Assembly: GCA_016187515.1 (NCBI GenBank)
Contig: JACPJN010000007.1
Location: 68,046-132,045 of the forward strand
Source: Candidatus Uhrbacteria bacterium
GTDB lineage: Bacteria; Patescibacteriota; Patescibacteriia; GWA2-47-26
Length of the DNA: 64,000 nucleotides
Reading direction: 5' to 3'
This document shows, piece after piece, positions 1-45,374 of the stretch. Position numbers and translations under genes: made by a program. The notes beneath the pieces were generated by a model. The model saw only the letters and a program-made list of their open reading frames with translations. It made no database searches and was not told the origin of the DNA. The number at the start of each line of letters is the position of its first letter. Position 1 is the stretch's first letter.

Positions 1-508
1 TGGTCACAATCAGGCCATCCTTACTCACAACAAATCCGCTCCCGCCGCCGACTTGTTGTTTTTTGGGCGGGCCTGGTGGTTGCTGCGGTGCCGGCTCCTG
101 CGGGATTTCAATCTCAAATCCAAATTGGCGAAACAGATCTTCGGGAAATGGTGAGGTCACACTGCGCTGCGCTACTTCTTTACTAATTACAATAGATACC
201 ACGGCGGGCGAGACCCGCCTGACCACCTCAACTGTAGAATCACTCTCTTGTCCCCCTCCCCTAACCCCTCCCACCAAGGGAGGGGAATTCCCTTTTGCTT
301 CCTCCCCCTTGATGGGGGAGGATTGAGGAGGGGGTGCGGCACGCGGCACGATCCATTGTAACGATGGCGGAAGTGACGCCAGCAACCTCTGCCCGATATT
401 ACCCGCGGCAACCTGGGAGGCCACAATACCGCCGGTTACTCCGGCAACGCTCCCCACCAAAAAACTGATGGTAATCGAGGCCAGAATTGTTTTGCGAAAA
501 TCATTCAT
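1..508 (-). CDS. HtrA/DegP-family trypsin-like serine protease, N-terminal part (gene continues beyond window start)
   Basis: Manual translation from ATG 508-506 gives MNDFRKTILASITISFLVGSVAGV (TM anchor), then VVRRVSPAVVSIVISKE and GGGSGFVVSKDGLIVT, a typical HtrA core. Absent from the ORF track because there is no in-window stop. Carries the in-frame family-1 repeat at 250-336. Confidence 0.6.
   Translation of the reverse strand, partial: MNDFRKTILASITISFLVGSVAGVTGGIVASQVAAGNIGQRLLASLPPSLQWIVPRAAPPPQSSPIKGEEAKGNSPPLVGGVRGGGQESDSTVEVVRRVSPAVVSIVISKEVAQRSVTSPFPEDLFRQFGFEIEIPQEPAPQQPPGPPKKQQVGGGSGFVVSKDGLIVT
250..336. repeat. Family-1 G/C-rich double-hairpin element (CCCCTCCC/GGGAGGGG stems, loops ACCA and TTGAT), in frame inside htrA
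   Basis: cccctccc..aagggagggg and cctccccc ttgat gggggagg hairpins. Same architecture as 2210-2298. Confidence 0.8.
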
Positions 509-582
509 ACTGCAACCTGATTTTACCATGCGCTGGCACGGGATTTCAATGGCGGAGCGCAAAGGACTGTCCTTGTCCAAAT

Positions 583-1339: not shown

Positions 1340-1463
1340 CCCCTCACCTCGACCTCTCCCCCTCCAGAGGCGGGCAGGCGCGGGGAGAGGTGATGCTAAT
1401 TGATACCTTATTCAACTCCCCTCTCCCTCTGGGAGAGGGTGGCTGGAGGCCGGGTGAGGGTTT
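1340..1463. repeat. Family-1 composite element (outer stem cccctcacc/ggtgaggg enclosing inner hairpins), forms the 3' tail of the DUF559 ORF
   Basis: cctctcccc...ggggagagg and cccctctccc tct gggagaggg. Followed by a TTTTT run. Confidence 0.7.
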
Positions 1464-1790
1464 TTGGAGCATACTTAAAATAGTTTCTATCACCGCTTTA
1501 GTTTCCCTCACCGCAGCATCTGCTCCAAATCGTATCACTCGATATCCTTGACCTTCTAAATATCGCGTGCATGCCGCATCTTTTTCTATTTGCGTCCCGT
1601 GTTGGCTTCCATCAATCTCGATGATCAAAAATTTCTCCTCACAACAAAAGTCGGCAATATATTGCCCTACCGGATGTTGCCGCGGAAATTTATATCCGCC
1701 AAGTCGTCGGTCTCGCAAAAAACTCCACAATTTCCTTTCGCCGTCTGTTTGCCTGTGACGCAGTGTGCGGGCAAGTTTAACATTTGACAT
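1344..1790 (-). CDS. DUF559 (Vsr-like endonuclease fold) domain protein; C-terminal about 40 aa encoded by a repeat element
   Basis: The track ORF 1344..1844 contains RKLWSFLRDRRLGGYKFPRQHPVGQYIADFCCEEKFLIIEIDGSQH and RVIRFGADAA, which are DUF559 motifs. Start moved to ATG 1790 (MSNVKLARTL); GAGGGG from the upstream hairpin serves as the SD. Confidence 0.55.
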   Translation of the reverse strand: MSNVKLARTLRHRQTDGERKLWSFLRDRRLGGYKFPRQHPVGQYIADFCCEEKFLIIEIDGSQHGTQIEKDAACTRYLEGQGYRVIRFGADAAVRETKAVIETILSMLQKPSPGLQPPSPRGRGELNKVSISITSPRACPPLEGERSR

Positions 1791-1793
1791 ATT

Positions 1794-1833
1794 GCCCCTC
1801 ACCCCGTCCTCTCCCGCGGGGAGAGGGGTATTG
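1794..1833. repeat. Family-1 single hairpin (cctctccc gc ggggagagg) immediately upstream of the DUF559 start
   Basis: Seen directly in the sequence. Confidence 0.6.
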
Positions 1834-1840: not shown

Positions 1841-2488
1841 TCAAAAATCCACCCCCTTCTGCGCCAGCACTCCTTTGTCATACGGGTGTTTTACTTTTTC
1901 CATTTTGGTTACCAGATCAGCCATTTCCGCAAGCTCGGGATATTCATTGTGTCCGGTCATCAGTAGATGCACCTCCGGCGGCTTGGCGCGGATTAAATCT
2001 TTTATATCATCCACGCTCAAAAGCATACTATCCACGGCCGACAATATCTCATCCAAAATCACCACTTGGAATTTGTTATTTGTAATTTGTGATTTCGCGA
2101 AGGCCAGGCCTTCGCGCGCGGCTTGCTCGTGATCCTCGATCGGCTTGGCATCCCCAAGGATGCGTACCCACCCTTTGCCGACGATGTGGTATTCCAAGTG
2201 TGCACCATCTTCCCCTCCCCTAACCCCTCCCACAAGGGGAGGGGGATTTTTAATTACTCCCTCTCCCTTGATGGGAGAGGGTTGGGGTGAGGGTGAGGAC
2301 TGCTCCAACCATCTAAACATCCTCCCCTCTCCGGTCTCCCACCCCGCCTCGGCCCCGCCTTTCATAAATTGCATAAACAACACGCGCTTCCCCTGTCCCA
2401 GCGCGCGCAAAGCCAGCCCAATCGCGGCTGTGCTTTTCCCTTTGCCATAACCCCAATAAATCATGACCAAACCTTGTTCCATATTCAC
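1841..2488 (-). CDS. cobA: Cob(I)yrinic acid a,c-diamide / corrinoid adenosyltransferase (CobA/BtuR/CobO family) with an in-frame repeat-encoded insertion of about 30 aa
   Basis: Contains GYGKGKSTAAIGLALRALGQGKRVLFMQFMKGG ... HLLMTGHNEYPELAEMADLVTKMEKVKHPYDKGVLAQKGVDF. The insertion SSPSPQPSPIKGEGVIKNPPPLVGGVRGGEDGAH is encoded by the repeat at 2210-2298. Confidence 0.75.
   Translation of the reverse strand: MNMEQGLVMIYWGYGKGKSTAAIGLALRALGQGKRVLFMQFMKGGAEAGWETGEGRMFRWLEQSSPSPQPSPIKGEGVIKNPPPLVGGVRGGEDGAHLEYHIVGKGWVRILGDAKPIEDHEQAAREGLAFAKSQITNNKFQVVILDEILSAVDSMLLSVDDIKDLIRAKPPEVHLLMTGHNEYPELAEMADLVTKMEKVKHPYDKGVLAQKGVDF
2210..2298. repeat. Family-1 double-hairpin element, in frame inside cobA
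   Basis: cccctccc acaa ggggagggg and ccctctccc ttgat gggagaggg. Encodes a peptide nearly identical to the htrA copy (SPIKGE..PPLVGGVRGG). Confidence 0.85.
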
Positions 2489-6540: not shown

Positions 6541-6550
6541 ACGTTTTCTA

Positions 6551-6628
6551 AGTTATTGGGTTATTGGGTTATTGGGTTATTTTTGAGTCAATTCGTAATA
6601 ACTCAATAACTTAGTAACTTAATAACTC
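6551..6628. repeat. Family-3 palindromic word-repeat (GTTATTG / TAATAAC words) between ftsA and ftsZ
   Basis: agttattgggttattgggttattgggttat ... aataactcaataacttagtaacttaataact. Confidence 0.8.
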
Positions 6629-7886
6629 ACGGTATTAGTGATTTAAATAATTTTTTCAAACCCATACTCACTTTGCCCAGTCCGCGAATAGATACGAACT
6701 GCGACAGGCGTCCTTTTGGCGCGCGATCTTTGGACATCTCATAACCCCACACGGTTAGTCCGACCGCGGTGGCAAAGGAAGTGTCGCTGCCCCGATCCAA
6801 AAGCGAGGAAACGCCGCCGGGATAGCCAAGGGAAGCGGGTAAACGCAGTTTTTCTTTAGCCAGCTCAACCAAGCCATTAAGCCGCGCTCCTCCGCCGGTA
6901 AAAATGATTCCGGAAGGCAGCATCGCGGAACGCCCGATTTTTTTCAGTTCCCGATCAATCCGTTCAAAGATCTCTTCCACGCGCGCCTGAATAATCTCGG
7001 CAATGTAACGGCGGGAAACCAGCTCATTTTCTCCGCCAAGATCCCCCAGGTTGATTTCTTCCTTTTTATTAATTTCCTTGGGCAGCGCGGTCCCATGTTC
7101 TATTTTTACCCGTTCCGCCACGTCAATGGAAGTACGCAGACCAATCGCGATATCAGAAGTAATATGATCACTGCCGATGGGAATGATGCCGGTGGTTAAA
7201 AGATCTCCTTCTTCAAAGACCACGTAACTCGTGGTGGATGAACCCAGATCAACCACGGCCACGCCCAATTCTTTTTGGCGCGAGCTGGTAATGGTTTCGG
7301 TGGCCGCGAGAATGGACAAGACCAGATCCTCGATATCCAAGCCGGTACGATATACGCATTTGGTTAAATTTTTAATCTGCGAACTTAACCCTTGAATAAT
7401 CTGCGCGTCCACTTCCAGCCGAATCCCGGTCATCCCGACCGGATCCTTTACGCCGGATTGCCCATCAACCGTAAACGACTTCGGGATGACGTGTAGAATT
7501 TCGTAGTTTAAGGGAGTGGCCACCGTGCGAGCCGCCTCAATCGCGCGTTCCACATCTTCCTCGGTAATCTCGCCATTGGGTTTGCCGACCGCGACCACGC
7601 CGCGAGATTCTTCGGTCAAAATATGCAGTCCGGAAATCCCGACCCAGGCCCGCTCCAGCGGCGCTCCCAGCACGCGTTCGGCTTTTTCAAGGCAGGAGGA
7701 GACCGCCGCGGTGGCATCTTCAATGGAAGAAATCACGCCTTTGGAAATACCGGCGGAGGGAACTTCAAATGCGCCGACGACCTGCAGTTCGCTTTCTTTC
7801 TCGCTTACGGACACGCGCTGACCCACGGCCAGACGAATCGCCGAAGATCCCAAATCCAGCCCGACAATAAATGGTTCGTTGTTCAT
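6627..7886 (-). CDS. ftsA: Cell division protein FtsA
   Basis: MNNEPFIVGLDLGSSAIRLAVG, an actin-like ATPase. Start trimmed from the track ORF (8057) to ATG 7886. Confidence 0.9.
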   Translation of the reverse strand: MNNEPFIVGLDLGSSAIRLAVGQRVSVSEKESELQVVGAFEVPSAGISKGVISSIEDATAAVSSCLEKAERVLGAPLERAWVGISGLHILTEESRGVVAVGKPNGEITEEDVERAIEAARTVATPLNYEILHVIPKSFTVDGQSGVKDPVGMTGIRLEVDAQIIQGLSSQIKNLTKCVYRTGLDIEDLVLSILAATETITSSRQKELGVAVVDLGSSTTSYVVFEEGDLLTTGIIPIGSDHITSDIAIGLRTSIDVAERVKIEHGTALPKEINKKEEINLGDLGGENELVSRRYIAEIIQARVEEIFERIDRELKKIGRSAMLPSGIIFTGGGARLNGLVELAKEKLRLPASLGYPGGVSSLLDRGSDTSFATAVGLTVWGYEMSKDRAPKGRLSQFVSIRGLGKVSMGLKKLFKSLIP

Positions 7887-9413: not shown

Positions 9414-10316
9414 CTAATTCATAATTCTCAAACTATTGAGCATCATCGTGAAGGTCGTCCGGTAGGTTGGCCGGGCTCCGTCTTCCAGATCTTCCAGGAG
9501 GTATAGGCGCGCGGGTCCTTTGATCGCGGCGCGCCGCCGGTCCGCTCCCGCCTGGATCTCCAGCCCGGCCTTACTATCGCGCCAGGGGGAGGACGGCTCT
9601 CCCGGCCAATTTTGGCTATACCAGTCCTTAGCCGACAATCCGGCGGAATTTTCTCGCGCCTGTATCGAGAAAATCGTCCCGCCCTCGCCATCCGCGATAG
9701 TGACCTTACCAGGTGTCTCCAGATTGGTCTGGATCTGCCAGGGGGACGGAATCAGTACGGCGTAACCGAAAGAATTTTCATTAAACCAGCGCACCAGATT
9801 GGTTTCTTCCAGGCGCTCGGGGGCATTACCAGAGGCGTTATACAAGTGAAAAATCTCATGGCCGTCCAGAAACCCGTCTTTATCCGTATCGGGTTGCGTG
9901 GGGCCGCTGTGATACAAAATTTCTTCGGCATTACTTAAGCCATCCCGATCCGTATCTTCCCAGACCGGCGGAGGAGCGGGCGCCTCGGAGACGGGTTCGG
10001 TTAAAGGCGGCTCTGGCGCGGGTGGAATTTTTGGTTCTGCGCTGGGCGCTATCAGCGCTTCGGTTTCCGCCGGCGGGGCTGGAATTTCCACTGGCGGCGG
10101 CAGGACTGGCGCGGGCTTGACCCGCAGCGGACGGGTAAAGTACCAAGCCGCGGCCGCCACGACGATCAAAAACATCCCGCCCACCACAATCCAAAAGAGC
10201 GCTCGCGGAGATAATGCTAATTTTCGCGCCGCTCCCGCTTCCTTTTTCCGCGCGCCTTTCGGAATCCGGCCTCCCCAATAGGCGTCCGGAATGACATGGA
10301 TGATTAGATCGGACAT
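9414..10316 (-). CDS. Single-pass membrane protein with a Pro-rich linker and thrombospondin-type-3-like Ca-binding repeats (DxDxDG)
   Basis: TM helix, then PAPVLPPPVEIPAPP, then DTDRDGLSNAEE..DTDKDGFLDGHE. Confidence 0.6.
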   Translation of the reverse strand: MSDLIIHVIPDAYWGGRIPKGARKKEAGAARKLALSPRALFWIVVGGMFLIVVAAAAWYFTRPLRVKPAPVLPPPVEIPAPPAETEALIAPSAEPKIPPAPEPPLTEPVSEAPAPPPVWEDTDRDGLSNAEEILYHSGPTQPDTDKDGFLDGHEIFHLYNASGNAPERLEETNLVRWFNENSFGYAVLIPSPWQIQTNLETPGKVTIADGEGGTIFSIQARENSAGLSAKDWYSQNWPGEPSSPWRDSKAGLEIQAGADRRRAAIKGPARLYLLEDLEDGARPTYRTTFTMMLNSLRIMN

Positions 10317-10320
10317 AAAG

Positions 10321-10405
10321 GGAGTAAATCAAGCGAGACAAGCAAGGCAAGTAAATTAAGTACTGGACTTGCCTGATTTACCTGATTCACTTGATTTACT
10401 GACTT
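10321..10405. repeat. Family-2 palindromic word-repeat (GTAAATCAAG / CTTGATTTAC words)
   Basis: gagtaaatcaagcgagacaagcaaggcaagtaaattaag ... cctgatttacctgattcacttgatttac. Confidence 0.8.
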
Positions 10406-11343: not shown

Positions 11344-11373
11344 TTGACACCAGGCCGAAAATAACCTATGCTA
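11344..11373 (+). promoter_or_regulatory. Sigma70-like promoter (TTGACA-17-TATGCT) for the lipoprotein gene
   Basis: cttgaca ccaggccgaaaataacc tatgct. Confidence 0.4.
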
Positions 11374-11403
11374 AAAGTGGCTCTACCAACAAAGGAGGAA
11401 GCC

Positions 11404-13728
11404 ATGCGTACCTTGACAATGACCGCGTTTTTGCTGGCGTTCTTTGCCGCCTGCGGAGGCGGCGACTCCACCACCGCGCAGGAAGGCGAGGGTGAGGAAA
11501 GCGAAGAAGGCGAGGCCGAAGGCGGACGCGAAGGTGAAGGTGAGGGCGAAGGCGAAGGTGAAGGCGAAGGTGAAGGTGAATCCGAGTCCGAAGCCGAATC
11601 CGAGTCCGAGTGCGAACGCGAGGACTGCGACGACGGCGTGGACTGCACTGACGATCGCTGGAACGCACCGTCGTGCAGGTGTATCCACACGATCGTGCCG
11701 GCGCTCTGTGAGCCGGGCGAGTACTGCGACCCCGAGGAGGGTTGCATCGAAACACCTCCGTGCGATGAGCCCTCGGACTGTCCGGACCGCGGCAGTGAAG
11801 ACGGACTTTGCCTGGATGAGGGCTGTGACCTTTCTACGGCTTCGTGCACCTACACGATCCATGACCGCGACCGGGACGGCCACGCGCCTAGGCGATGCGA
11901 AATTGAGGGTGGGGATGACTGCGACGACGATAATCCCCTGATCTATCTCGGCGCGCCAGAGCGCTGTGACGGGGAGGATAACGACTGCAACGGCGAGGTG
12001 GACGATCTTCCCGAGCTTGGCCAGCCCTGTGATGGGCGGGATGCGGACGAATGCGAGGAAGGGGTTTGGGTCTGCGAGGGCGGTGAAGGTGAGAGTGAAA
12101 GCGAGGGCGAATACGACGACCTATATTGCAACGATTTCACCAACGACAGCCGCGAGACCTGCGACGGGCTGGACAACGACTGCGATGGGGAGGTGGATGA
12201 GAACTTCAGATGGCGCGATCCGGAAACCGGATCCCAGCGCGAACTGGGACAATCCTGCACGGTTGGACTTGGTGTTTGCGAAAACACCGGCAATGTGATC
12301 TGCTCCGTATTCGGAGAATCTGCCCGCTGTCCAGTCAGCCCCTTGCCCGCAGAGTCGCCCGAGGTCTGCGATGGGCTGGACAATGACTGCGATGGCATCA
12401 CAGATAATGGTCCGCCCGAGGTCTGCGACGGGGAGGACAACGATTGCGACGGGGAGACGGACGAAGGCGTTGTCAATGCCTGCGGTACCTGCGGACCTGT
12501 ACCATCCGAGATCTGCGATGGGGAAGACAACGACTGCGATGGGGAGACGGACGAGGACTTTGGTGGAACATCCTGTGGTGTTGCTTCCACTGCCTGCATA
12601 GCTGGCGAGATCGTGGAATGCGATTGCTGTGACGGACTGGACAATGATGGGGACGGTTTGATTGACCAAAACGATCCAGATTGCCCGGCCGATGACTATT
12701 GGTGCCCGACCTCCACCGCTGGCGCGCCTGCGGTGCGCCAATCCCATACCGCCATCTGGACCGGGTCCGAAATGATGGTGTGGGGAGGATGGGGTGGTGG
12801 TTCGCCTCTCAACACCGGCGGACGATATGATCCGGAAACCAATACTTGGACTGCGACTTCCACTGTTGACGCGCCTACGCCGCACTGGCTCCATACCGCC
12901 ATCTGGACCGGGTCCGAAATGATGGTGTGGGGAGGATGGGATGATGAATTCAATCCCCTCAACACCGGCGAGCGATATGATCCGATCACCAATACCTGGA
13001 CTGCGATTTCCACTGCTGGCGCGCCTGCGGGGCGCTACTCCCACACTGCCATCTGGACCGGGTCCGAAATGATGGTGTGGGGAGGATGGGGTGGTGGTTC
13101 GCCTCTCAACACCGGTGGGCGGTATGATCCGGAAACCAATACTTGGACCCCGACTTCCACCGCTGGCGCGCCTGTGGCGCGAGGTAGCCACACCGCCATC
13201 TGGACCGGAAGTGAAATGATAGTGTGGGGAGGAGCGGATGATAGCGGTCGTTTCCACACCGGCGAGCGATATGATCCGATCACCAATACCTGGACTGCGA
13301 TTTCCACTGCTGGCGCGCCTGCGGGGCGCTACTCCCACACTGCCATCTGGACCGGAAGTGAAATGATAGTGTGGGGAGGAAGGGATTGGGACTTCATCCC
13401 CTTCAACACTGGCGGACAGTATGATCCGACAACCAACTCCTGGAGCTCGACCTCCACCGCTGGCGCACCTGTGGCGCGCACCAGCCACACCGCCATCTGG
13501 ACCGGGTCGGAAATGATGGTGTGGGGAGGAATGGATAATGGTCGGAATCTGATCAACACTGGCGGCCGGTATGATCCGACAACCGACTCCTGGAGTCCGG
13601 TCTCCACTGCTGACGCGCCTGTGGCGCGTGGCTCGTACACTGCGGTTTGGACCGGGAGTGAAATGCTGGTGTGGGGAGGATATGGTAGTGGTGGTTATCT
13701 CAACACCGGCGGGCGGTACGTGCCCTAG
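11404..13728 (+). CDS. Secreted lipoprotein: acidic low-complexity region, MopE-like Cys-rich repeats (CDGxDNDCDGxxDE), then a Kelch-type beta-propeller with about 9 repeats
   Basis: MRTLTMTAFLLAFFAACGG (lipobox) with AGGAGG 8 nt upstream. Repeated HTAIWTGSEMMVWGG..NTGGRYDPxTNTWT blades. Confidence 0.8.
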   Translation: MRTLTMTAFLLAFFAACGGGDSTTAQEGEGEESEEGEAEGGREGEGEGEGEGEGEGEGESESEAESESECEREDCDDGVDCTDDRWNAPSCRCIHTIVPALCEPGEYCDPEEGCIETPPCDEPSDCPDRGSEDGLCLDEGCDLSTASCTYTIHDRDRDGHAPRRCEIEGGDDCDDDNPLIYLGAPERCDGEDNDCNGEVDDLPELGQPCDGRDADECEEGVWVCEGGEGESESEGEYDDLYCNDFTNDSRETCDGLDNDCDGEVDENFRWRDPETGSQRELGQSCTVGLGVCENTGNVICSVFGESARCPVSPLPAESPEVCDGLDNDCDGITDNGPPEVCDGEDNDCDGETDEGVVNACGTCGPVPSEICDGEDNDCDGETDEDFGGTSCGVASTACIAGEIVECDCCDGLDNDGDGLIDQNDPDCPADDYWCPTSTAGAPAVRQSHTAIWTGSEMMVWGGWGGGSPLNTGGRYDPETNTWTATSTVDAPTPHWLHTAIWTGSEMMVWGGWDDEFNPLNTGERYDPITNTWTAISTAGAPAGRYSHTAIWTGSEMMVWGGWGGGSPLNTGGRYDPETNTWTPTSTAGAPVARGSHTAIWTGSEMIVWGGADDSGRFHTGERYDPITNTWTAISTAGAPAGRYSHTAIWTGSEMIVWGGRDWDFIPFNTGGQYDPTTNSWSSTSTAGAPVARTSHTAIWTGSEMMVWGGMDNGRNLINTGGRYDPTTDSWSPVSTADAPVARGSYTAVWTGSEMLVWGGYGSGGYLNTGGRYVP
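12700..13728 (+). repeat. Near-identical tandem DNA repeats of about 150 bp encoding Kelch blades
   Basis: cacaccgccatctggaccgggtccgaaatgatggtgtggggagg recurs with few changes. Confidence 0.8.
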
Positions 13729-13821: not shown

Positions 13822-16800
13822 TTAATCTAAGGCCGCCCCCTCCTCGACTAGCACTCCACCGGAAAGAGTGGAGATGTTGCACTGATTGTCACAATAGGTA
13901 CAGCCCACTAAACCATAGCCCGGCGTACACCGAGTCCCATTGGAAGTTCCTTCATCACATTCCTCTGGATCAGTACACCGGCCACGACCGCAATCCTGGT
14001 CGCGCCGACAGGTCACGCCGTCACGATTACGATCGCCAGTGCCCACACACACCAGTCCCTGATTGAATCCGTCGCCACATTTTGCGTGCTTGCAGTCGTT
14101 AATGCAGCCATCCGCATTTTCCGCCGCATCGTTTTGCCCGTCGTTCGTGGTTCCATCGTCACACTGCTCATTTCCTTCGCGCGCGCCATTGCCGCATTGT
14201 CCTTGGGCAACTGTAGTGAGACCGCCCCAACGACATGGACCACCACTACGGCAGGCCTGCCGCCAGAGATACGGGTAGCCCTCGGGCTCTGTAAACTGTT
14301 GACTGTCATAAACATGCGTTCCATCCCACTGGATTGGCCCAGTAAATTTACAGCTACCAAATGACGTATCGCAATCAGAATCTTGGCGGCAGGGCTTTCC
14401 AAAATCCGAAGCCCCCCACACCCACATACACACCTGTGGACTCTGGCGAGTATCTCCCGCTTCGCACTGCTCATTCCACTCTTCCTGTATCTCATTGTCT
14501 CCGCACCGCGCCCCTGGCCCGGAGCAGTCAAACCGACAACACCCATAATCGCCATTGACACATGCTGCACCGCTGGAATTTGTAGAATCACATACTTCGG
14601 GTCCATTGCGCGTACCGTCGCCGCAATAGGCACTAAGTGCGGTTGCTGAACATTGACCCCACGGGAAACAATTATTATCCTCGGTGCAGATATTTCCCTG
14701 ATTAGGCCCCCCGATGCAGGTCCTAGCGCATACCGTATTGCACTTGCCATACTGACCATTTAACAGCCCATCATCACATACTTCGCTTCCTTCTCTTATG
14801 CCATTACCGCAGATTACGCCGCCTTGGCATATGTCAAGGTTGGATGTCGGGTTTTGGGATCCACCCCATATTTGCCAGTCAGTCACCTGCGGAGCATCAT
14901 TCCACTCGCACCTATTCGTGCACGCCCGTACTGCCTGGCACTGCGATGAAAGAATACAAACCCCTTCATTGTCAGCGCAGTTTTCATCATTAACACACTC
15001 CTTCGAAGGATTCAAACTGCATGAACGCAACGGAACACATGAAGAACCTCTCGCATGCAACGTACAGGTTGAACCAGAATCTGGGAACCTTGGGGCTGTT
15101 GATATTACCCCGGTTTCTGGATTACACCTTTGCCGAAATCCCCCCTCAAAGGGGGCACCAGGGTCACCACAGTATCCAAACCAACGGGCTTGCTGGACCT
15201 CTTCCTGCCCCACTTCGCAGAATTCCTGGCAATTATTCACCCCGCACGAAACCCCGGGATAATTTGCGCAGGTTCCGTCCGGGAGACATTCACCACGTTC
15301 AAGAATTCCATTGCCGCAGGTCGCCGTGGCATTGGACCATAATCCCCCGGCTGGCGCGCCCGGCGCGCTCACCCAGGAACAATTGCTCGGGGTTAGCAGG
15401 TTGGTTCCCGCCGGATCAAAATTAAACACTTCCCAGCGGCTCTGCCCGGGAGCTGGCGGACGATACAGCAGTTCAAAATCTACGCCCAATTCATAGTCCA
15501 CTGCCCCAATCGCGCGATACTGATACACGTGGGATCCAGCCGGACAGCGGTAGGTTTGGGTCTGTTCATTCCAGCAAGTCGCGGGATCAAATTGCCCGCG
15601 CTCGCCTGGAATCGCGGCACAGCCCGGCGCGAAGCTATTGAGCGGATCTTGCGGCAAGGAGGCGCCCAATGTTGCGCCAAGCGTGGCCTGCCAAGAAGGC
15701 CATTTGGAGGTGGACATGGAACGGATAAAAGTGCCGGCCTGAAGCGGCGGATAGCGTCCGTGAGTATTGCGGTAATCCTCCAGTGCGGATTGTATCGAAC
15801 TGATATGATTTAAACGCAATAGATCTCGGCGCAGCTTGTCTCGGTTGGAGTTCTCGACATTCACATTAAGCTGGAAGTTGGAAACAAACTGGTCAAACAC
15901 TTGCTGCATCGCGCTGGGCGCGTTTTCAGAAAGCGAAAGCACGTAGATATTGCTGTACACTACTTTTAATGTGGGGACGTACCTATCAGTAACCGCGTTT
16001 GTGCCAGCGACATACACCGTATTCCGGTCCCGGATCGCCTCATAACCATCCACCCCGGGATTAATTGGCGCCGGAGTTCCAGTAAAGCCCATTTGCTCAT
16101 ACCAAGTTCTGACCGGCAAACGCCTCGGGTTTGGAAATACCCGAATTCCAATGGCCTGCTGTTTTTCTGCTGATTCAACCAAAAGATACTCCTTCAGCGG
16201 AGCAGGGCCAGTATGGCTGGTGGCGATACGGAAGGTGTCCAAAGTAACCGGCGCACCCTCGTCCGCGCCTGCCGCGGGAGGACGAATCGCGCCCGGGTAA
16301 ATTAAAGCCGGCAAATCGCCTGCGAGGCCCTCCTCACCACTGTCGCGGCAGTACCAAGTGCGAAAATTCATGGGGTCTCCTCCGCCAAGGAGTGCGCCTT
16401 CGCGATCCTCAAACCGCGGCAAGGGGTGCTCAATACGCGATGGCCAGGGATTTTCGCACAGCGTGGTAATAAATTCCGCGCTCCCCTCGCGCACCGCGTC
16501 CTGATGATCCTCCGGCTGCGGAAGCGCGCTGGCGTCAGTAATTGTGGCAGTGGCATTCACGTCCGTCTCGCCATTGCGATTCCCGGCAGTTACGGTTTGA
16601 TCTGGATCAGCGTTGATCGGATCCGCAGCGTTGATGGGATCCGGCTCATTGGTAACGCTGGCCACGGTATTTTCCGCTGATCTCCAGGACCAGGCCCAGG
16701 AATATCCGGTTGTCCGCTGCAGCGCCTGCCCGCTGCTGGAGAGCGCCTCGGCCCGAACTTGGGCCTGCTGCCCGGGACGAGAAAAACCCGCGCCGCCTTC

Positions 16801-19800
16801 TCCTTCAAAAATGCTCACCGCTTCATCCGCGCCAGTTACGTTAACGCGCACGTTTTCCACGGTACAGATCTCGGATCCGGTAGTGAAGTTCCAACTTGAA
16901 TCTGTTCCGCCTTCGGCAGCGGGACCGCGGAAGGCCACGCCGAAAATCGAGCGCACTCCAGAAGCGATCAAATCATTAAGGTTCGGGTCGCCAGCAATGG
17001 TGATCTGATAATCTGTCGCGTTATCCAAAATCCGCGAAGGTTGCAGGACTAAACGACTCCCCTGTGCTGCCGATTCAACCGACGCCTTTAAGCTCAAGGA
17101 CGGATCAGCGCACCACACCGAATTTCTTGCCCGGCCCTGAAGAGTCAGGCCATCCGGACACGTCGCAGTGTTTTCAACACGCTTGGCAATTCCGATCGCT
17201 TGATCAAGATTTGCGGAATCCATGGGTTGATCAAAAGTTACTTCCAAAAGTCCATTGGGACAGGCGTCTGGCGTATTGATGCCCGGCACGCGCTCCACAA
17301 TTTTCGGGCGAAGATAACAACAGTTGTCGCTCCCGCGGCCCACGGCCTCGGATGGCCCTTGTCCGGGCGTTGGACAATCGGCTTCGCTGCGGGCCACGCA
17401 AAATACGGTAATACTGGCGCTGCCCGGCGCGCCCGCTTGTCCCTCCACCGCCGCCTCTACCGCCACCGTACTCCAAGGATTAGGCGGAGCGCAGACCGGA
17501 AAATTCTCATCCGTACAATTGCCATTGCTGCTACAGGGCGCGCGCGGTTCCTTAAATTCTCCGGTCTCTTTGCGGCAGAACTTCCGAATCCCCAAGGCCC
17601 TGGCTTGCTGAATTGGATCAATGCGCCGAGGCGACTCCGCAACCGTCCCTTCATTAAGACAGCGCGCGGAACAGCCGTCTCCGGCAGCCGTATTGCCATC
17701 ATCACAGTCCTCAAAACGATCAATCCTCCCATTGCCGCAAAACGGCGAAGGAGTTCCTTCATTAAGACACCGGGATGAACAGCCATCGCCATTGGCGCGA
17801 TTATTTAACTGATCGCATTCTTCACCGGCCTCCACTAATCCGTTGCCGCAGGTGGAAACCGGAAGAGTGCCTTTTAAAAGACACGTGGCTGGGTCGCAGA
17901 ATTCCGAAAGAAGGGGGGCACCTAAAAGGTCGCGGTAACGCTGCTGGTCTTCGGGATCACATTCTTCCCCGCGATCAATCTGCCCGTTTCCGCAAGTAGT
18001 CGCCCGAGAAGTCCCTTCATTCCGACACTGCGTAGAGCAGCCATCGCCCGGTAAAACATTGCCGTCGTCGCAATCCTCGCCATTTCCGGGTTCCGGGTCT
18101 CCGCCACTGCCGCAGCAATTGGTTTGCTCCGGAGCGACACAGCGCGCCAGCGCTCCGGCGTGCAGACAACTCGCGGTGCACCCGGGCAAGCCGGGCGGGT
18201 CGCATTCCTCGCCCGGATCAATAATACCATTCCCGCAGGCGAATCTTCCGAGAATTCCCGCGCTGGATCCCTCGTTTAAACACTGCGCTAAACAGCCATC
18301 GCCATCTATTAAATTTCCGTCATCGCAATCTTCCGCGTATTCCCGCACCCCATTGCCGCAGGAAGGCAAACGATCCACTCCGGTCCGCACTACTCCGGCA
18401 ATCATGGTATTGCCCACCACGCCGGCGACCCGATCATCTTCTTCAAGTTCCGGATCGTCAATCTTCCAACCCCAATCGTAGGACAGCGAATTTAAGCGCT
18501 GGCCCTGCGGATCGCAGGCATCCGGAGCGCTCCGCGGCTCCGCGGAAAAACTCGCGCGCGCGCCGATAAGATAGAGCGCGGCTTGCGGAGGGCTTAATTC
18601 CACGCGATCAACCTGACAGGATGACGCGCCGGTTTTAAAGGTCCAAGAAAAAGTATTGCACTGCGCGCCCGCGCACTTCCCTGGCCCGGGAGCGAGCATC
18701 GCTCCGGTTATCGCGTCACGGCCGGCCCAATTGTAGGAAAAGTTCAGTCCGGCCAGCGGCTTGCCCGGTACGGAGCTGTCGCGGCGGCTTGAATGTAGGC
18801 CAGCGCTGCCGCCTTTGAGTAAAACCCGATAAAAAGTATTGGGCAGTAAGAGATCTTCTCGCGCCGAGGTGGCCGGGTTATCGGTAAGTCCGATCTCCAG
18901 GGTATTTTCTGCGCTCTTCCAAGAAAGTGCGGGGCTCAAAACTCGCTCCGCCAAGCGGCCGGGTTTAAGACAGCGGACGGTGCAGAGCGGATCACGCTCG
19001 CCCCCATCGCAACCGATATCTTCGCCATTGTCCAGCACGCCATTGCCGCAAAGCGCGGGTTCGGATCCCTCGTTTAAGCACTGCGGTAAGCAGCCATCGC
19101 CGGAAAGGCGATTGCCATCATCACAATCTTCCGCGTACTCGCGCAAACCATTGCCGCATTGCGCGAAACGCGTTCCTTCATTAAGACAATTGGGGGAGCA
19201 GCCATCGCCCGCGTTGGTATTGCCGTCATCGCAATCCTCCGCTTCCGAGGCAAGGATCCCATCGCCGCAAGCCGGTACTGACCCGGCGGCAATTGAACCT
19301 TCATTAACACATACTTCGGAACAGCCGTCTCCGGGCCGCAGATTGCCGTCATCGCAGTCCTCGCCCAGTTCAATGCGGCCATTGCCGCAGCCCTGACCTC
19401 CGGCGGAAGAGGGACGACGCGTGCCGGTCCACTGACAAATACTGGTGCAGAGATTGCGCTTGGCCGGGGTGTTTAAAAGCGGCGAATTAGGGTCGCACTC
19501 CTCGCCCGGATCAATCTGGCCATTGCCGCAAAGCAGCGGACTTACCGGATTGCCCCGCCTTAAACAGTCCTGCGGATCGCACCACGACGCAAATTCGTGA
19601 TCAAAATTCACTTCACATTCCTCGCCCGCTTCCAAACGGCTATTGCCGCAAACCGCGAAGTTCGAACTGGTCCCCTCGCGAAGGCATTGCGCGGAACAGC
19701 CATCTCCGGCTTGTCGATTCCGATCATTATCACACTCCTCACCCGGATTAATTTTACCGTTTCCACACAGCGCGGGTCCGGTTCCCTCGTTTAAACACTG

Positions 19801-22800
19801 CGACGAACAGCCATCGCCGTTTTCCAGGTTGCCATCATCACAATCTTCTCCGCGGTCAAGACAGCGGCCGCCTTGGCAGCTCTCTCCTGGCCCGCACTCG
19901 GAAGCATTGCGGCACGCCCGTCCGTCTCCGCAGCGCAGAGAAAAGTTTGATCCCTCATTAAGACAAACTGCGGAACAGCCGTCTCCGGAAGTCGTGTTGC
20001 CATCATCACACTCTTCTCCCGTCTCCACGCTGCCATTGCCGCAAGGCACGGCCCAGAGTAACGCGTTTTGAACATTGGTCACGCTTTGGGGATGCAAAGT
20101 GTTTGAGGAGGTAAACATGGCCACATTAAACCGCGCGGCAATCTTGGCGTTGGTACAGGCCTCTCCGCAAGCCGGCCACCATTGTATTACTTGCGGGTCC
20201 ATAAATGAAATCTTGAGCTTCCCAAAACCGGTGGTCCGTGGGGGCTGCGGCGGAGTATGCGCGCGGACTCTGATCTCTTCGCCTTGGGTGTCTTCCAAGG
20301 CAATTACGGTTACGGTCCAGGGCATGTGCTTACAATACCCTCCAACACAGGCCTCGGTCACGCAAGTATTGGGCTGACCGCCGCAGTCGGCATCTACCTG
20401 GCACGGCGCGTCGTAATTGTTGGAACAATGGCTGTACCCGATCGCGCACTCCGCGTCTTCACTACAGGCCTTGCCGATCGCCGGGGAAATTCCGCTGGAA
20501 TTATAAGTAACCGCCGCGCGCTCCGGATTCTCCGTATCATAGACATCCCAGGCCCACGAATAGTCGTCCGACGACGGCACTACGCAAGGATCGTCAAGCG
20601 CCACGGGAATTGCTAAATAATCAATCGGCTCATTTTCCGTAGTGGCCTCATAAGGGCTGGGCACCACCGCGATCCCGCCGACTTGACAAAGATTATTGTC
20701 CGGATTGGACTCGTTTTTGGTTTGAAACGCAAAACAGTACGCGGCGCGCGCGTCTCCGCAGCGGGATAAGCCGTCTGGAAGCGGGATCATGGGCTGGCCT
20801 TGAAGAGCGCCGCGATCTTGCGCGGTAATTCCTCCGGTCCCGCCCAAAAGTACCACGCGATACCAGGAACCGGCTGAAAAATTATCCGACAGCCAGAAAC
20901 TAAATCCTAATCCGCCGGAATACGGCCCAAATTTACGGCCGAGCGCCTGATCTTCAACTTGGCTGCAGGCCTCCCCTTCAATCTGGACATCATCAACATA
21001 AACCGCGAAGTCCTCTCCGGAACTCGCCTCCTCGCCAACCTCATAAGGATCGCCTTCCAAAAATACGCGCACATAGCCGGGAGCATTGCCATTAGGACTG
21101 GCATCAAAGGTCATGGTTACCGACACCGGCTGCCACTCATTGGTGAGCGTAATTTCGGACCGAACTTTTTGCCAAAAACCACGGGTGGCCAGACAGGTCC
21201 TTTGTCCGGCATTGGTTTGGCTCGCGCACCCGGTGTCCGCAGTACAAGCCACTCCGCCGGATATTCCGCCGCAACGCATTCCGTCAGCGCCGCCCGCGCG
21301 TTGAATTAAAATTCCGGCGCGCTTCCCCGCCCCCGCGGCATCAACCGCTTTCATCCACGCGGTTGCCGTATATATTTTCCCGCTGGTATCGGCAATGGCA
21401 TTGGCTTGGTACCCAAACCAATGCTCATAATTTTGTTGCAGTCCGCGAGTATCTCTCCATCCTGGGCCGGTGTCGTTGTCCAGCTTGGTAAGGGCGAGCG
21501 CAAAATTGCCCGGATCCGCACTAGAAGCGCCGCGCCCAGCGCCTAGCACGGTTTCCACCCCCAACAAATCCTCGTGGCGAAGGTTTGTCGGCGGATCCAG
21601 CGTGGGCTCTGGCGGGCGGCCCCACACGGCAGTATCCGCGGTGAAATTCGGACTTCCAAAAGTGGTGTCCGCGCCATTCAACAGTTCGGTCGGCGCCGTG
21701 CACTTTTGGAGCTTAATCGTCTGCGAATTTAAGGTCGCCGGATCAACCCGGGCGTCCGGATTAAAACTCACTGCCACGGCCGCGTTAACGCATACTCCGG
21801 TATTTGATCCTCTTCCGGATTCGACAGCCGGCGACGGCGAAGGCGGATATTGCGGAAAACCTTCCGCGTCGGCTGCTTTATCGCATCCTTCAAACACCGT
21901 CGGGGTAAGCGGGGCCTGGGAGGTGGTAAACTGCCAAGCAAACGCGGACTCCCCGGGCTGCGCGCCAGCGCAGTCCGCCCTACAAGTTCCGTCTCCACAG
22001 CAAGTCAGACCTCCGAGCGCGGCGCAATCCAAGCGCGCTTCATCAGGGGCCGGCAACCGGCAATCACCAACCAAAAACGTCCGCAAATTCGAAGCGCGCG
22101 TGATCTGGCCTCCTCCAGCTTGCGGAAAATCATTTTGTATAATTACCTCTCCGGCTGGAGTCCCAGCCACGGTGTTTCCGGGCACTTGCGCGCATACTTC
22201 TTGCGCGTCCCAGCCACCGCGCGGACAAGCATCCAAACGGATACCTCCGACATTGGTGAGCGTGGCCGGTAAAGTCGGCGCCCAGGACTGATCCGCGGAA
22301 CTCCTGCGCGCCGTAAATAGCGCCCCGCGGCCGGAAGCCGGCGCGGATCCAAACCGATCTCCAAAAATGCTGACATTGGTAAACGTTGGGCCGGAGGCCG
22401 GCTCAATACAAGCTAAAAATGGCGCGGCTGACTCTTGATCTAAAACATCAAAATCCTTGGGACTGGACTGCTGACGATCATAACGCTGCACATAAAGGTA
22501 GGCGCCATCATCAAAAAGAAGATCGGAGGCGCTGCCATCTTCATCCGCGTCGTGGATATCCAAAATGCGCGGCACTTTAACCGTGATCTGTATTGGACTC
22601 CACCAACTGCTCCCGCATTGCGAAGGAAAGTCCACGTTTCCCTGCACTCCTCGCCCATCGGAAGTAACAAACCAAACCATTCCGGGGGTATCGCCGAAAT
22701 TCCGTCCGGAAATGGTGCACCCGGCCCCTGGCCCGCCGCGCGCCGGATTATCTTCCGGCGCGCCCGCGCAAACTACCGTCGTAATAATTGGCAAAGTGCC

Positions 22801-38646: not shown

Positions 38647-39504
38647 TTATGTTACCACCTCCGCCCCGCGCTTGCGCACAATCACCGTATGCTCAAAATG
38701 CGCCGAGGGTTTGCCATCGGCCGTTACGATGGTCCAGCCGTCGGGTTGCACATTGACGCGCCAGGTTCCTAAATTTACCATCGGCTCAATCGCAATCACC
38801 ATTCCCTCTTGCAGTATGCAATCCGGAAATCCTTCCACCCAAAAATTCGGGATCTCTGGCGGTTCGTGCACGCGGTAGCCCACGCCGTGTCCGACGAGTT
38901 CGCGCACAATCCCAAACCCAAATTTCTCCACATACTTTTCAATGGCTTTGGAAATATGGCTAACGCGATGACCGGCGCGCACTTGTTTGATGCCAATCTT
39001 TAACGCGCGCCCGGTTACTTTGATCAGTTCACGCACCTTGCGATCCACGCGGCCGACCATGACTGTGCGTGCCGTATCAGTATAGAGACCCCTCCTAACC
39101 TCCCCTTGTAAAGGGGAGGAAATTGTTTCATTTCTCCCCCTCTCGGAGGGGGAGTGAGAGGGGGTCCGTAGAACCGGCCACCGCATGCCGATGTCTATTT
39201 TCACAAGATCTCCATCCTTAATTACCCGCGACGGCACCGCCGGCGCGTGCACTACTTCCTGATTTAGGCACGCGCAAATCGTCGTGGTAAACGGCGGATG
39301 ATCCGGCCGCGGCGCGTAGCCCTTAAACGCCGGCTCTCCGCCGGCCTCCCGAATCATCCGCTCCGCCGCCACATCAAGTTCTTCGGTCGTTACTCCCGGC
39401 TTTACCATTTTACAAAGTCGCTCCAAAATCTTCGCCAAGCGCTTTCCGCCTTGGCGAATCAACTCCAGCTCCTTGGGGTTCTTTATAGTTGCTCCGCGTT
39501 CCAT
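38647..39504 (-). CDS. map: Type I methionine aminopeptidase with an in-frame repeat-encoded insertion of about 32 aa
   Basis: VVHAPAVPSRVIKDGDLVKIDIGM [insertion] GLYTDTARTVMVG ... HGVGYRVHEPPEIPNF ... IEPMV. Confidence 0.9.
   Translation of the reverse strand: MERGATIKNPKELELIRQGGKRLAKILERLCKMVKPGVTTEELDVAAERMIREAGGEPAFKGYAPRPDHPPFTTTICACLNQEVVHAPAVPSRVIKDGDLVKIDIGMRWPVLRTPSHSPSERGRNETISSPLQGEVRRGLYTDTARTVMVGRVDRKVRELIKVTGRALKIGIKQVRAGHRVSHISKAIEKYVEKFGFGIVRELVGHGVGYRVHEPPEIPNFWVEGFPDCILQEGMVIAIEPMVNLGTWRVNVQPDGWTIVTADGKPSAHFEHTVIVRKRGAEVVT
39085..39168. repeat. Family-1 element (cctcccctt gtaa aaggggagg / ctccccctc tc gagggggag), in frame inside map
   Basis: Seen in the sequence. Confidence 0.85.
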
Positions 39505-40137: not shown

Positions 40138-40791
40138 TTAAAATCCCGTTTGCAGCGCTTGCATGATATTTTCGTGGATTTTTTCAATTGAGGAAGAGGC
40201 CTCTATTTCACGCAAAATTCCGCGATGGCGGTAAAGATCCAGCAGGGGTTCGGTTTCGGCGCGGTAGATTTGCAAACGCTTGGATACGGCTTCGGGTTTG
40301 TCATCATCACGCGAAGTTAAGGGCACGCCGTCTTCATCGCAATGCCATACTCCCTCGCCGCGGGATTCTTTAGGCGGAGCATAAACCACATGATAATTAG
40401 TGCCGCATTTGGTGCAGACCAGTCGGCCGGTCATGCGCTTGAGCGCTTCGTGGTCGGAAAGATTAAGTACCAGCACCTGGGTGGCCGCGATAAATTCACC
40501 AAGCAAATCATACTGCGCGCGGTTTCGCGGGTAGCCATCCAGAATAAACCCCTTTTGCGCATCTGCCTGGTTCAAGCGCGCGCGCACCACTTGCGCGGTC
40601 AAATTATCCGGCGCCAGGTTGCCGCCGCGAATAATTTCCTCGGCGCGGCGCCCCAGCGCGGTGCCGGCCGCGATTTCCGCGCGCCAAAGCGCTCCGGCCG
40701 AAATCAAAGGGATGCTCAATTTTTCCGACAGCAATTTGCCTTGGGTGCCTTTGCCTGAACCCTGGGGGCCTAAAAGTAGAATGCGATACAT
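40138..40791 (-). CDS. adk: Adenylate kinase with a zinc lid
   Basis: LLLGPQGSGKGTQ plus CTKCGTNYH...CDEDG. Confidence 0.95.
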   Translation of the reverse strand: MYRILLLGPQGSGKGTQGKLLSEKLSIPLISAGALWRAEIAAGTALGRRAEEIIRGGNLAPDNLTAQVVRARLNQADAQKGFILDGYPRNRAQYDLLGEFIAATQVLVLNLSDHEALKRMTGRLVCTKCGTNYHVVYAPPKESRGEGVWHCDEDGVPLTSRDDDKPEAVSKRLQIYRAETEPLLDLYRHRGILREIEASSSIEKIHENIMQALQTGF

Positions 40792-40796
40792 AGTGA

Positions 40797-40874
40797 TTGA
40801 GTTATTAAGTTAAGGGTTATTAAGTTATTGAAATCACTACTTAATAACTTACTAACTCAATAACCTAATAACTC
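40797..40874. repeat. Family-3 palindromic word-repeat
   Basis: gattgagttattaagttaagggttattaagttattg ... cttaataacttactaactcaataacctaataact. Confidence 0.8.
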
Positions 40875-41676
40875 CAAATCCGGCCAAGGTTCCCAGCACA
40901 ATTGAAGGCAGCGCCGGCAAGGGGCGGCGATGACCCAACTGGAACAAGAGATCCGTGCCTAAAAGACCGAGCAGTGACCCGGCCGCGGCGCCGACGCCAA
41001 ACCAAAATCCTTCCCGCGCCGCGGCGGCCACAAATACCGCGGGGAGCGCCAGGTCTCCGGTTCCCAGAAAGAAAAAACCCTCGCCCGGGGTAACCGCGCG
41101 CAGCTTTTTAAAAAACCATCTTGGACGCTCGGGAAGGATCAGCGCGAAAATCACTCCCTTATCAAGCAGACCCTTAAACATGGTTACCATGTGGTGGGTT
41201 CCATAAACCGCGATCACATCATAGAGACCCAGAATAATCAGCACCACTGCCATTGATTCCCAAGCAATCACGCTTCCCAACGAGGCCGCGATACCGGCAA
41301 TCCCCCCGAGCATAATCACATTCTGCGCGATAATCAGAGGAAACAAGTAGCGCAGGGCAATCAGCCCCAGGGCTAAAAATAACGCCTCCTGCGGAAGATA
41401 CAGCTCCAAAAGCGCCCAAAGACCAATCAGAATCGACAAGCCAAAAATCGCTTCAAATACGACTCGGCGCCGGAGCTTGCGGATCAGAAAAAAAAGCACT
41501 GCCGTGGATAATAAAAAAGAGAAAATCAGCCGCGGCGCGGATAATTCCAGCGTTGTTCCGGAACCGACCAGGATATCGGCGCTCCTTAAGCGCGCGGCGG
41601 CCGATAAAACCAGCGCCTCGGTTGCCGCCAGCAGAAGCACGGTTTGTAAGATAAGAAAAAGCTGCTTTTTGGACAT
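40852..41676 (-). CDS. Presenilin / signal-peptide-peptidase-like intramembrane aspartyl protease homolog (A22-like)
   Basis: Polytopic membrane protein with ordered motifs LGLYDVIAVYG (YD), FLGTGDLALP (GxGD) and LPALPSI (PAL). Confidence 0.55.
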   Translation of the reverse strand: MSKKQLFLILQTVLLLAATEALVLSAAARLRSADILVGSGTTLELSAPRLIFSFLLSTAVLFFLIRKLRRRVVFEAIFGLSILIGLWALLELYLPQEALFLALGLIALRYLFPLIIAQNVIMLGGIAGIAASLGSVIAWESMAVVLIILGLYDVIAVYGTHHMVTMFKGLLDKGVIFALILPERPRWFFKKLRAVTPGEGFFFLGTGDLALPAVFVAAAAREGFWFGVGAAAGSLLGLLGTDLLFQLGHRRPLPALPSIVLGTLAGFGVIRLLS

Positions 41677-41726: not shown

Positions 41727-41963
41727 TTACTGGCCGAAAATGGCTTGCTCAATGGCCGAGGCGTCTCCTTCGGAGATTTTGAACTCGGCGCGCAGCTTAC
41801 GCAGACCTTTGCGCAACTCCGCTTCATATAGCCCGCCGGACCGCGCTTGCTTAAGCAGCTCTTTGACCTGCGCCTGTTCTTTCCAGCCCAACCGCTCGCG
41901 AAGTTTATATAAAATCGCGTTGATTTCCCGATCGGAGAGTTGTTTAGCCATATATTTAGTCAT
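41727..41963 (-). CDS. Hypothetical small protein (78 aa)
   Basis: ORF between secY and the protease gene. Confidence 0.4.
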   Translation of the reverse strand: MTKYMAKQLSDREINAILYKLRERLGWKEQAQVKELLKQARSGGLYEAELRKGLRKLRAEFKISEGDASAIEQAIFGQ

Positions 41964-42036
41964 CAGTTCACAGTCGTCAGTTCACGGCATTGTATTGGCG
42001 CAACTGTGAACCGACGTCTGACGACTGTAGACTCAA
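41958..42036. repeat. Family-4 palindromic word-repeat (CAGTTCAC / GTGAACTG words)
   Basis: tcatcagttcacagtcgtcagttcacgg ... caactgtgaaccgacgtctgacgactg. Confidence 0.75.
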
Positions 42037-43317: not shown

Positions 43318-43326
43318 AGTTGCGTT

Positions 43327-43407
43327 GAGTAAATCAGGTAAATCAAGCGAGACAAGTGAATCAAGTGTTTGACTGGCCTGATTTACTTGATTCACTTGAT
43401 TTACTCT
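43327..43407. repeat. Family-2 palindromic word-repeat between rplO and secY
   Basis: gagtaaatcaggtaaatcaagcgagacaagtgaatcaagtgtttgactggcctgatttacttgattcacttgatttac. Confidence 0.8.
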
Positions 43408-45370: not shown

Positions 45371-45374
45371 AATT

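Follow-up and report, generated by a model that had tools for sequence, protein, structure and literature searches.

Palindromic repeats that lie in frame within bacterial genes have been documented mainly in Rickettsia, and a 2024 review of MITEs, the miniature inverted-repeat transposable elements, treats comparable repeat-driven evolution of proteins elsewhere in prokaryotes as no more than conceivable (PMC10969869). The Rickettsia palindromic elements (RPEs; Ogata et al. 2000 Science 290:347; 2002 Genome Res 12:808) measure about 150 bp according to the reviews that describe them (PMC10969869, PMC3733652), and two further classes, the repetitive extragenic palindromes (REPs), whose doublets are termed REPINs and whose associated tyrosine transposases are termed RAYTs (Bertels & Rainey, PMC3116915; Di Nocera et al., PMC3733652), and the bacterial MITEs, such as Correia/NEMIS, ERIC, BOX and RUP (PMC10969869), also invite comparison. 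We report the analysis of an 87-nt palindromic element, designated family 1, that is read in frame within a partial htrA/degP-type protease gene at the start of a 64,000-nucleotide stretch of a metagenome-assembled Candidatus Uhrbacteria genome (contig JACPJN010000007.1; hereafter 'the window', by which the whole 64-kb stretch is meant). The element is, with high probability, a short non-autonomous palindromic DNA repeat of the REPIN or MITE kind that is tolerated in frame as the RPEs of Rickettsia are, and we regard it as a new variant within the known class of in-frame palindromic repeats. The host gene and the parts of the element are as follows:

2..508, minus strand: partial htrA/degP-type gene, beginning with ATG at 508 and running off the left window edge; it encodes an anchor in the membrane near residues 7-30 and a protease core that starts near residue 94
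251..337, minus strand: family-1 palindromic element, 87 nt, read in frame as HtrA residues ~58-87
252-261: C-run, CCCCCTCCCC, followed by TAA at 262-264
265-272, loop 273-277, 278-285: hairpin 1, CCCCTCCC / ACCAA / GGGAGGGG
286-300: AT-rich spacer, 15 nt
301-308, loop 309-313, 314-321: hairpin 2, CCTCCCCC / TTGAT / GGGGGAGG
326-334: G-run, complementary to the C-run at 252-261

Direct reading of 251-337 gives a layout of five parts, a C-run, hairpin 1, an AT-rich spacer, hairpin 2 and a G-run, in which the C-run and the G-run form terminal inverted repeats; the helix that they make (helix 1) is paired in 87% of the cells of the alignment described below. The repeat unit is an imperfect palindrome of 34 nt, which occurs both singly and as inverted doublets, and the full element can be understood as such a doublet, each half consisting of a C-run, TAA and a hairpin with a pyrimidine stem. 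This anatomy ruled out readings of the insertion as an intein, an intron or part of a CRISPR array, since it spans only ~30 codons, lacks splice-type junction residues and recurs at irregular spacing.

As far as the RPEs are described in the reviews, the element resembles them in forming a short palindromic family with many in-frame copies in unrelated housekeeping genes that stay functional, in adding a conserved peptide where the fold of the protein can accommodate it, and in having small-genome bacteria as hosts. It differs from them in its length (87 nt against ~150 bp), in being a doublet of a 34-nt unit, in its host, which belongs to the Candidate Phyla Radiation (CPR) and not to Rickettsia, in the presence of its unit in many other phyla, and in having a candidate partner gene of the DUF559 family. 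Because the host is Candidatus Uhrbacteria we do not file the element as an RPE; the likeness noted here is one of behaviour. With the REP/REPIN-RAYT systems it shares a unit in the range of 20-40 nt that is an imperfect palindrome, a mobile-looking form that is an inverted doublet folding into a long hairpin, compensatory changes in the stems, a single protein gene flanked by units and, as with some REPs, a location within open reading frames (ORFs); the element behaves like the GTAG/CGTC REPs that Di Nocera and colleagues reported within genes (PMC10969869, PMC3733652). The GTAG/CGTC tag itself is absent, however, the units beginning instead with CCCC(T)CCCC and having variable flanks. Moreover, the flanked gene encodes a DUF559/Vsr-like nuclease and not an IS200/IS605-type tyrosine transposase (no RAYT, that is, Y1 transposase, was seen in the part of the window ORFs that was scanned), and whereas REPs are mostly extragenic, 4/5 full copies that the window has outside the DUF559 locus are intragenic. 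The element agrees with the bacterial MITEs in its size range, terminal inverted repeats, internal secondary structure and occasional fusion in frame to an ORF, and differs from them in that neither a target-site duplication nor a parent insertion sequence or transposase was found here; the DUF559 genes carry units at both ends, though DUF559 is not a known transposase. A literature search of incomplete coverage found no paper with the sequence and none on such repeats in the CPR.

The family was first recognised in a sequence-only reading of the window, which placed the htrA element together with a copy in a neighbouring gene that it called cobA, and which we identify as cobO. That assignment holds. 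A repeat-finding program matched 253-339 to 2212-2298 across 87 nt without a gap, 80% of the bases being identical, and in an ungapped scan the two copies agree at 70/87 positions, where the best agreement found in 20 block-shuffled windows is 40-44/87, so that a lack of similarity between them is ruled out. The further statement that loops and stems match between the two copies is mostly correct: stem 1 and loop 2 (TTGAT) are identical, loop 1 reads ACCAA in the HtrA copy and ACAAG in the CobO copy, and in stem 2 the substitutions are compensated (CCTCCCCC/GGGGGAGG against CCCTCTCCC/GGGAGAGGG). A hairpin scan combined with direct reading located the remaining copies, which with the gene that several of them surround are:

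2210..2296, minus strand: most similar copy (80% identical), an in-frame part of the CobO/BtuR adenosyltransferase ORF 1841..2488
36256..36342, minus strand: divergent copy built in the same way, an in-frame part of the RecO ORF 35887..36708
39085..39169, minus strand: divergent copy, in frame in the type I methionine aminopeptidase (MetAP, Map) ORF 38647..39504
1344..1790, minus strand: DUF559 (Vsr-like endonuclease fold) gene, 148 aa, in which the element behind the domain supplies the 39 residues at the C-terminus
1340..1453: full two-hairpin element directly 3' of the DUF559 domain; covariance model E 4e-4 as a sequence outside the training set
1795..1828: single unit, C-run and hairpin on the plus strand, directly 5' of the DUF559 start codon
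586..620: single unit, hairpin and G-run, intergenic, upstream of htrA; covariance model E 0.1
29262..29346: doublet of reversed arrangement (hairpin-G-run / C-run-hairpin) in the intergenic DNA downstream of scpA, with stops in 6/6 frames

The repeat, a palindrome of three helices, is thus present in five full copies and several part-copies in 64 kb, and five of the eight family sites fall within the first 2.3 kb, around the DUF559 gene. The full copies in HtrA, CobO, RecO and MetAP are all contained in minus-strand ORFs, in one orientation and in one frame of the element (PPxQSSPIKGE...PPLxGGxRGG); each of these has two or three stop-free frames out of six, and the intergenic copy has none. 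The intragenic copies add whole codons in a stop-free frame, in linkers or surface loops, and leave the host genes intact. The sequence-only reading had understated the extent of this, as the RecO and MetAP copies are also in frame and the DUF559 gene, 1 kb away from the htrA element, is tied to the family.

We built a covariance model from the four intragenic copies of the window and seven copies from other phyla, with 20 base pairs distributed over the outer stem and the two hairpins. The model recovers its training copies, among them those in HtrA and CobO with E values of 4e-22 and 8e-21, and newly finds the element at 1340-1453, where the hairpin scan had shown a single unit at about 1410-1455, and parts of the site at 29.2-29.4 kb. 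In the three-helix consensus 94% of the paired cells can pair, compared with 89% in shuffles and at most 80% when the partners are slid, and compensatory changes are found in 11/20 pairs against 2.6 in shuffles, a value that none of 500 shuffles reaches. Seven of the eleven aligned sequences were picked with a pattern that fixes hairpin 1, and the pairing score of that hairpin is inflated for this reason.

The repeat has spread within the genomes of Candidatus Uhrbacteria. A search with the HtrA fragment returned near-identical peptides in unrelated proteins, namely an AtpI-like protein, a ribulose-phosphate 3-epimerase and a lipoprotein, and an Uhrbacteria RecG carries two copies in frame. 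A profile of the four peptides, run against 1.84 billion representative proteins, gave 22 matches, which include RecG, a GT4 glycosyltransferase that has two copies, TatD, TsaD and a lipoprotein with a Germane domain; the other matches, in which Pfam recognises no domain, resemble arrays of units that have been translated. At the level of DNA, a species-representative genome collection of 596 Gb contains at least 118 stretches with the pattern CCCCTCCCCTAACCCCTCCC-N3-7-GGGAGGGG, in hosts that include Sphingomonas, Planctomycetota, Deltaproteobacteria, Omnitrophota, Chloroflexota and Uhrbacteria, although the pattern fixes 28 bases and identity between phyla within those bases is given by construction. 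Most of these matches are single units; two-hairpin elements that closely resemble the HtrA copy also occur. In plasmids the search found one partial match at the level of the unit, on a Capnocytophaga plasmid, the low-complexity filter of BLAST probably hiding others.

Simple composition might be held to account for all of this, as a chance likeness of low-complexity stretches rich in C and G that form no repeat family, and the RecO and Map copies, which agree with the HtrA copy at 45-47/87 ungapped positions, do only slightly exceed the shuffled maximum of 44. The probability that we assign to this view is vanishingly small. It is refuted for the HtrA-CobO pair by the identity at 70/87 positions, and it is at odds with the five-part architecture common to the copies, the compensatory changes in their stems, the near-identical peptides in unrelated proteins of relatives and the occurrence of a 28-base pattern at least 118 times in 596 Gb, where far less than one match is expected by chance.

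The element is carried by an htrA gene whose minus-strand frame is open from ATG 508 through all 169 visible codons to the edge of the window, and which has a promoter-like TTGAAA-18-TAAAAT at 549..520, just upstream of the start codon. As the sequence-only reading had claimed, translation from this codon passes through the element without a stop or frameshift and yields exactly the peptide RAAPPPQSSPIKGEEAKGNSPPLVGGVRGGGQESDS; the element is read as residues 58-87, between the membrane anchor and the protease core, and contributes ~30 residues rich in Pro, Gly and Ser to the linker that joins the two. The fragment has a weak match to a DegP-like structure in the PDB (E 0.015) that starts at residue 94, directly after the element peptide, and no Pfam match, the visible fragment stopping at the start of the domain. 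A related metagenomic genome (contigs L120/L121 and L167-L169) has the gene order cobO, DUF559, an MGMT-like gene and htrA, as in the window, and its orthologous htrA carries the element at the identical site, as SSPPPQSSPIKGEEEKENSPPLAGGVRGGGQDES. This orthologue (L167/L168) is complete, with 443 aa, Trypsin/Trypsin_2 and PDZ domains, and the catalytic TNKHV (His), the Asp region and GNSGGP (Ser), and it is ~70% identical to the fragment in the window; its Trypsin_2 and PDZ domains support the identification of the fragment as HtrA. In more distant HtrA homologues, 45-51% identical, no recognisable copy of the element was found.

Pseudogenes receive no protein record in NCBI annotation. One might suppose, then, that htrA has been disrupted by the repeat and that the open frame through the element is fortuitous, the more so as the window ends at codon 169 and a database search gave no identical HtrA protein, while Map and DUF559 of the same contig were present. 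The same word-indexed search, however, also missed the complete orthologue, although this is a called gene in the contig collection, and because a real orthologue was missed the absence of HtrA from the search is not evidence of absence. All 169 visible codons are open behind the promoter-like site, synonymous changes outnumber non-synonymous ones downstream of the element (32 against 18 in the flanking codons), and the orthologue with the same insertion is complete, with its catalytic motifs and PDZ domain. A decayed gene is accordingly extremely unlikely, and to judge from the element-bearing orthologue htrA is not decaying.

A comparison of the two orthologous HtrA elements, position by position, separates the constraint on the DNA from that on the peptide. 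None of 48 stem bases differ between the two, compared with 10 of 44 bases in loops, spacer and linker (p = 3e-4). The DNA of the element as a whole is 87% identical, with 21 codons identical, 5 changed synonymously and 5 non-synonymously, where the flanks are 66% and 76% identical, with 48, 49 and 41 codons in the respective classes; among codons whose amino acid is kept, 5/26 have changed in the element and 49/97 in the flanks (p = 0.007). From the contrast between stem and non-stem bases it appears that the hairpins are constrained at the level of the nucleic acid, or homogenised, beyond any constraint on the peptide, and since the stems inside the gene are far better kept than the neighbouring codons, the repeat is not simply decaying.

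The conservation might also be ascribed to the protein. Under such a view the insert is a native or exapted Pro/Gly-rich linker under selection as a polypeptide, and the DNA palindrome is incidental; the 30-residue peptide is 84% conserved between the orthologues, one site has changed from TTAGG to TGCGG with Val-Arg retained, and a flexible linker is plausible at this position. We nevertheless consider it very improbable. The same DNA is found in unrelated genes and in intergenic DNA, both in the window and in other phyla, the conservation falls on the paired stems, third codon positions included (0/48 against 10/44), instead of on particular residues, and the corresponding insert of MetAP, discussed below, is predicted to be disordered and is lacking from close orthologues.

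The stems being invariant between orthologues whose flanks are 24-34% diverged, one can also ask whether the host has co-opted the element as a signal in nucleic acid. It might be a hairpin in the mRNA that sets the pace of translation or makes the transcript more stable, a barrier to transcription in antisense, a G-quadruplex or else a DNA-binding site. Several properties speak for this. Either strand of the element folds very stably, with energies between -56 and -69 kcal/mol and z-scores from -3.6 to -7.0 relative to shuffles, and hairpin 1, when read on the antisense strand, leads into a T-rich tail and has a terminator-like score. The G-rich arm GGGAGGGGTTAGGGGAGGGG has, by direct reading of 252-285 and 314-334 on both strands, four G-runs, and could adopt a G-quadruplex in DNA or mRNA. 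A search of the whole window against Rfam, on the other hand, returned no family at the gathering score, and in E-value mode the elements resemble microRNA hairpins alone, far below threshold. Recognition by a partner enzyme, or gene conversion, could equally give conserved stems, and the location of the copies, at unrelated positions in unrelated genes and missing at some of these from close relatives, is better fitted by a selfish repeat. Retention as a host signal we accordingly judge unlikely, and we favour the REPIN/MITE-like repeat.

In the other host proteins the domain resumes after the insert. The Pfam matches of CobO (CobA_CobO_BtuR), RecO (RecO_C) and MetAP (Peptidase_M24) are each divided into two separate stretches that flank the inserts. 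CobO aligns with the structures 4hut and 1g5r on both sides of its insert, with ~38 extra residues between, and MetAP aligns with the Thermotoga maritima enzyme (PDB 1o0x) as residues 6-107 and 134-285, an alignment that places the insert in a beta-hairpin between two metal-binding Asp residues. An AlphaFold2 model of MetAP (mean predicted local distance difference test score, pLDDT, 83.9; predicted template-modelling score 0.83) has a confident core (pLDDT >90), whereas residues 114-137, the insert, score <50 and lie between strands 100-110 and 139-149; the model predicts a disordered loop at the tip of the beta-hairpin. The positions of the inserts, in a surface loop of MetAP and in the linker after the anchor of HtrA, are compatible with the fold.

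Empty sites are also found. The CobO orthologue of contig L120 is nearly identical to that of the window outside the region in question (76% over the full length, insert region included), and there it lacks the element and has a different stretch of 25 residues. MetAP orthologues of 70-84% identity fall into four groups at the insert site (~residues 108-137): those of 257-259 aa with no insert, at 72-84% identity, those with GC-rich family-1 inserts, those with an unrelated AT-rich insert (ANNESRTNLRISNSEIRKFE) and those with shorter inserts. The empty MetAP site reads ATG CGG TAT AAG GGG TTG TAC, to which the allele in the window adds 28 codons and that of a second Uhrbacteria genome 32 codons from another subfamily. 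Comparison with the insert-free homologues of MetAP and CobO and with the distant homologues of HtrA indicates that the insertions are derived. Insertions that break the frame or the fold would have been removed by selection, and the tolerated ones would be those that remain.

The element extends the range of in-frame palindromic repeats to a CPR bacterium with a small, gene-dense genome, and the essential enzymes affected include MetAP, between its metal ligands, RecO, RecG, TsaD and HtrA. That a single loop of MetAP holds different inserts in close relatives goes beyond a mere new example. In CPR genomes, inserts of this kind can lead gene prediction, the annotation of domains and searches for homologues astray.

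The gene at 1344-1790 is a candidate for the enzyme that acts on the repeat. Its product matches PF04480 (E 2.6e-36) and the 'endonuclease-like protein' of PDB 3HRL (E 5e-22), and the gene is bracketed by the family, with a hairpin and G-run before it, a full element after it, and GGTGAGGGGCAAT on both sides. The same bracket is found in relatives of this gene and at DUF559 loci of metagenome-assembled genomes of an Afifellaceae and an Omnitrophota. Among 41 DUF559 loci in IMG/VR, hairpins with pyrimidine stems lie within 150 nt in 18 of the 19 closest, on both sides in 8 of these, and are absent from all 22 distant loci. When the DUF559 core by itself served as the query, 120 homologues were obtained, in which motifs encoded by the hairpin (of the P.P..GEG and GGEGRVRG types) are present in 47/68 C-terminal and 18/30 N-terminal tails; shuffled tails give 4-8 and 0, respectively, and the cores have none. 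In a related metagenome contig (L119 14-388) the DUF559 gene has an internal stop and is a pseudogene, and a unit of C-run plus hairpin appears to be read through by the MGMT-like gene next to it.

Such an association fits a DUF559 enzyme that mobilises or maintains the units, as RAYTs do for REPINs, and fits as well a homing-type gene that inserts itself into them; Vsr-like folds reportedly act as homing endonucleases, as in I-Bth0305I. The repeat may have been moved or maintained with the help of the DUF559 (Vsr-like) clade that includes 1344-1790, the relation being either of the RAYT-to-REPIN sort or that of a homing-type gene to its targets. In its fullest form the proposal would be that the 34-nt unit and its doublets are non-autonomous partners of one DUF559 clade, a REPIN-RAYT-like system built on a different enzyme and distributed over the CPR, Alphaproteobacteria, Planctomycetota, Chloroflexota, Omnitrophota and other groups, and that they routinely colonise the coding sequences of Uhrbacteria with stems that are actively maintained. 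This we put forward tentatively, as somewhat doubtful in its entirety. The attachment of the unit to DUF559 across phyla does suggest, for a large family whose role is not known, a function that can be tested, and if the partnership is real, DUF559 gains a function and a second lineage besides Rickettsia is seen in which palindromic repeats remodel proteins. No paper linking DUF559 to repeats was found in a literature search of incomplete coverage.

Several observations weigh against the favoured account. The sequence identity between phyla is in part imposed by the 28 fixed bases of the search pattern, as stated above. The link to DUF559 is an association that emerges clearly when DUF559 genes are the starting point; of the 118 loci selected by the unit only 2 have DUF559 beside it, as would follow from units being far more numerous than the gene. 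A comparison of filled with empty MetAP sites shows no direct repeat that would mark a target-site duplication, and none is present in the flanks of the HtrA and CobO copies. The junction 'RWP' is common to all filled MetAP alleles in spite of their different inserts, which simple independent insertion does not explain. Neither a transposition event nor a transposase was found. Finally, the window does not hold the 3' two-thirds of htrA, and the protein search gave no 100%-identical HtrA even though Map and DUF559 of the same contig matched, which leaves a small chance of a defect further along the htrA of this genome.

Reverse-transcriptase genes lie beside the syntenic regions of relatives (L165 5477-6873; L167 353-1393), and one of them has a weak bAvd match that points to a diversity-generating retroelement; the ORFs of the window that were scanned showed no reverse transcriptase. 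Two proteins of the window, MetAP and DUF559, match NCBI proteins of 'Candidatus Uhrbacteria bacterium' at 100% identity. The neighbouring genes in the window are housekeeping genes, for ribonucleotide reductase, FtsZ, FtsA, ScpA, RuvX and a class II aminoacyl-tRNA synthetase. A stretch of RuvX, 'LEIRNSKFEIRN', was considered as an in-frame copy of another family and rejected, since Pfam matches RuvX there without interruption from residue 1 to residue 129.

The window contains a second repeat family, of long hairpins made of tandem 9-mers (GTAAATCAA... / ...TTGATTTAC) in the short gaps between minus-strand genes, and further families of intergenic palindromes of short tandem repeats, of the GTTATTGA/AGTTATTA, CAGTTCACGGTTCACAGT and ATTACAAAT types, which lie mostly at 40-55 kb. 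The coordinates of the second family and, in three sets, of the further palindromes are:

10306-10400, 33122-33225, 43320-43405, 48481-48566, 50034-50128, 60354-60457: tandem-9-mer hairpin family
6541-6637, 40789-40883, 45858-45946, 47998-48086, 49211-49297, 53426-53500, 54693-54782: further palindromes, first set
41949-41993, 45368-45448, 47045-47125, 49625-49712, 50952-51044, 51459-51539: further palindromes, second set
35748-35871: further palindrome, third set

Two large ORFs, of 3663 aa (13822-24813) and 786 aa (11368-13728), contain many Cys-rich repeats, including ones of the CDG.DNDCDG..DE type, and probably encode large secreted or surface proteins.

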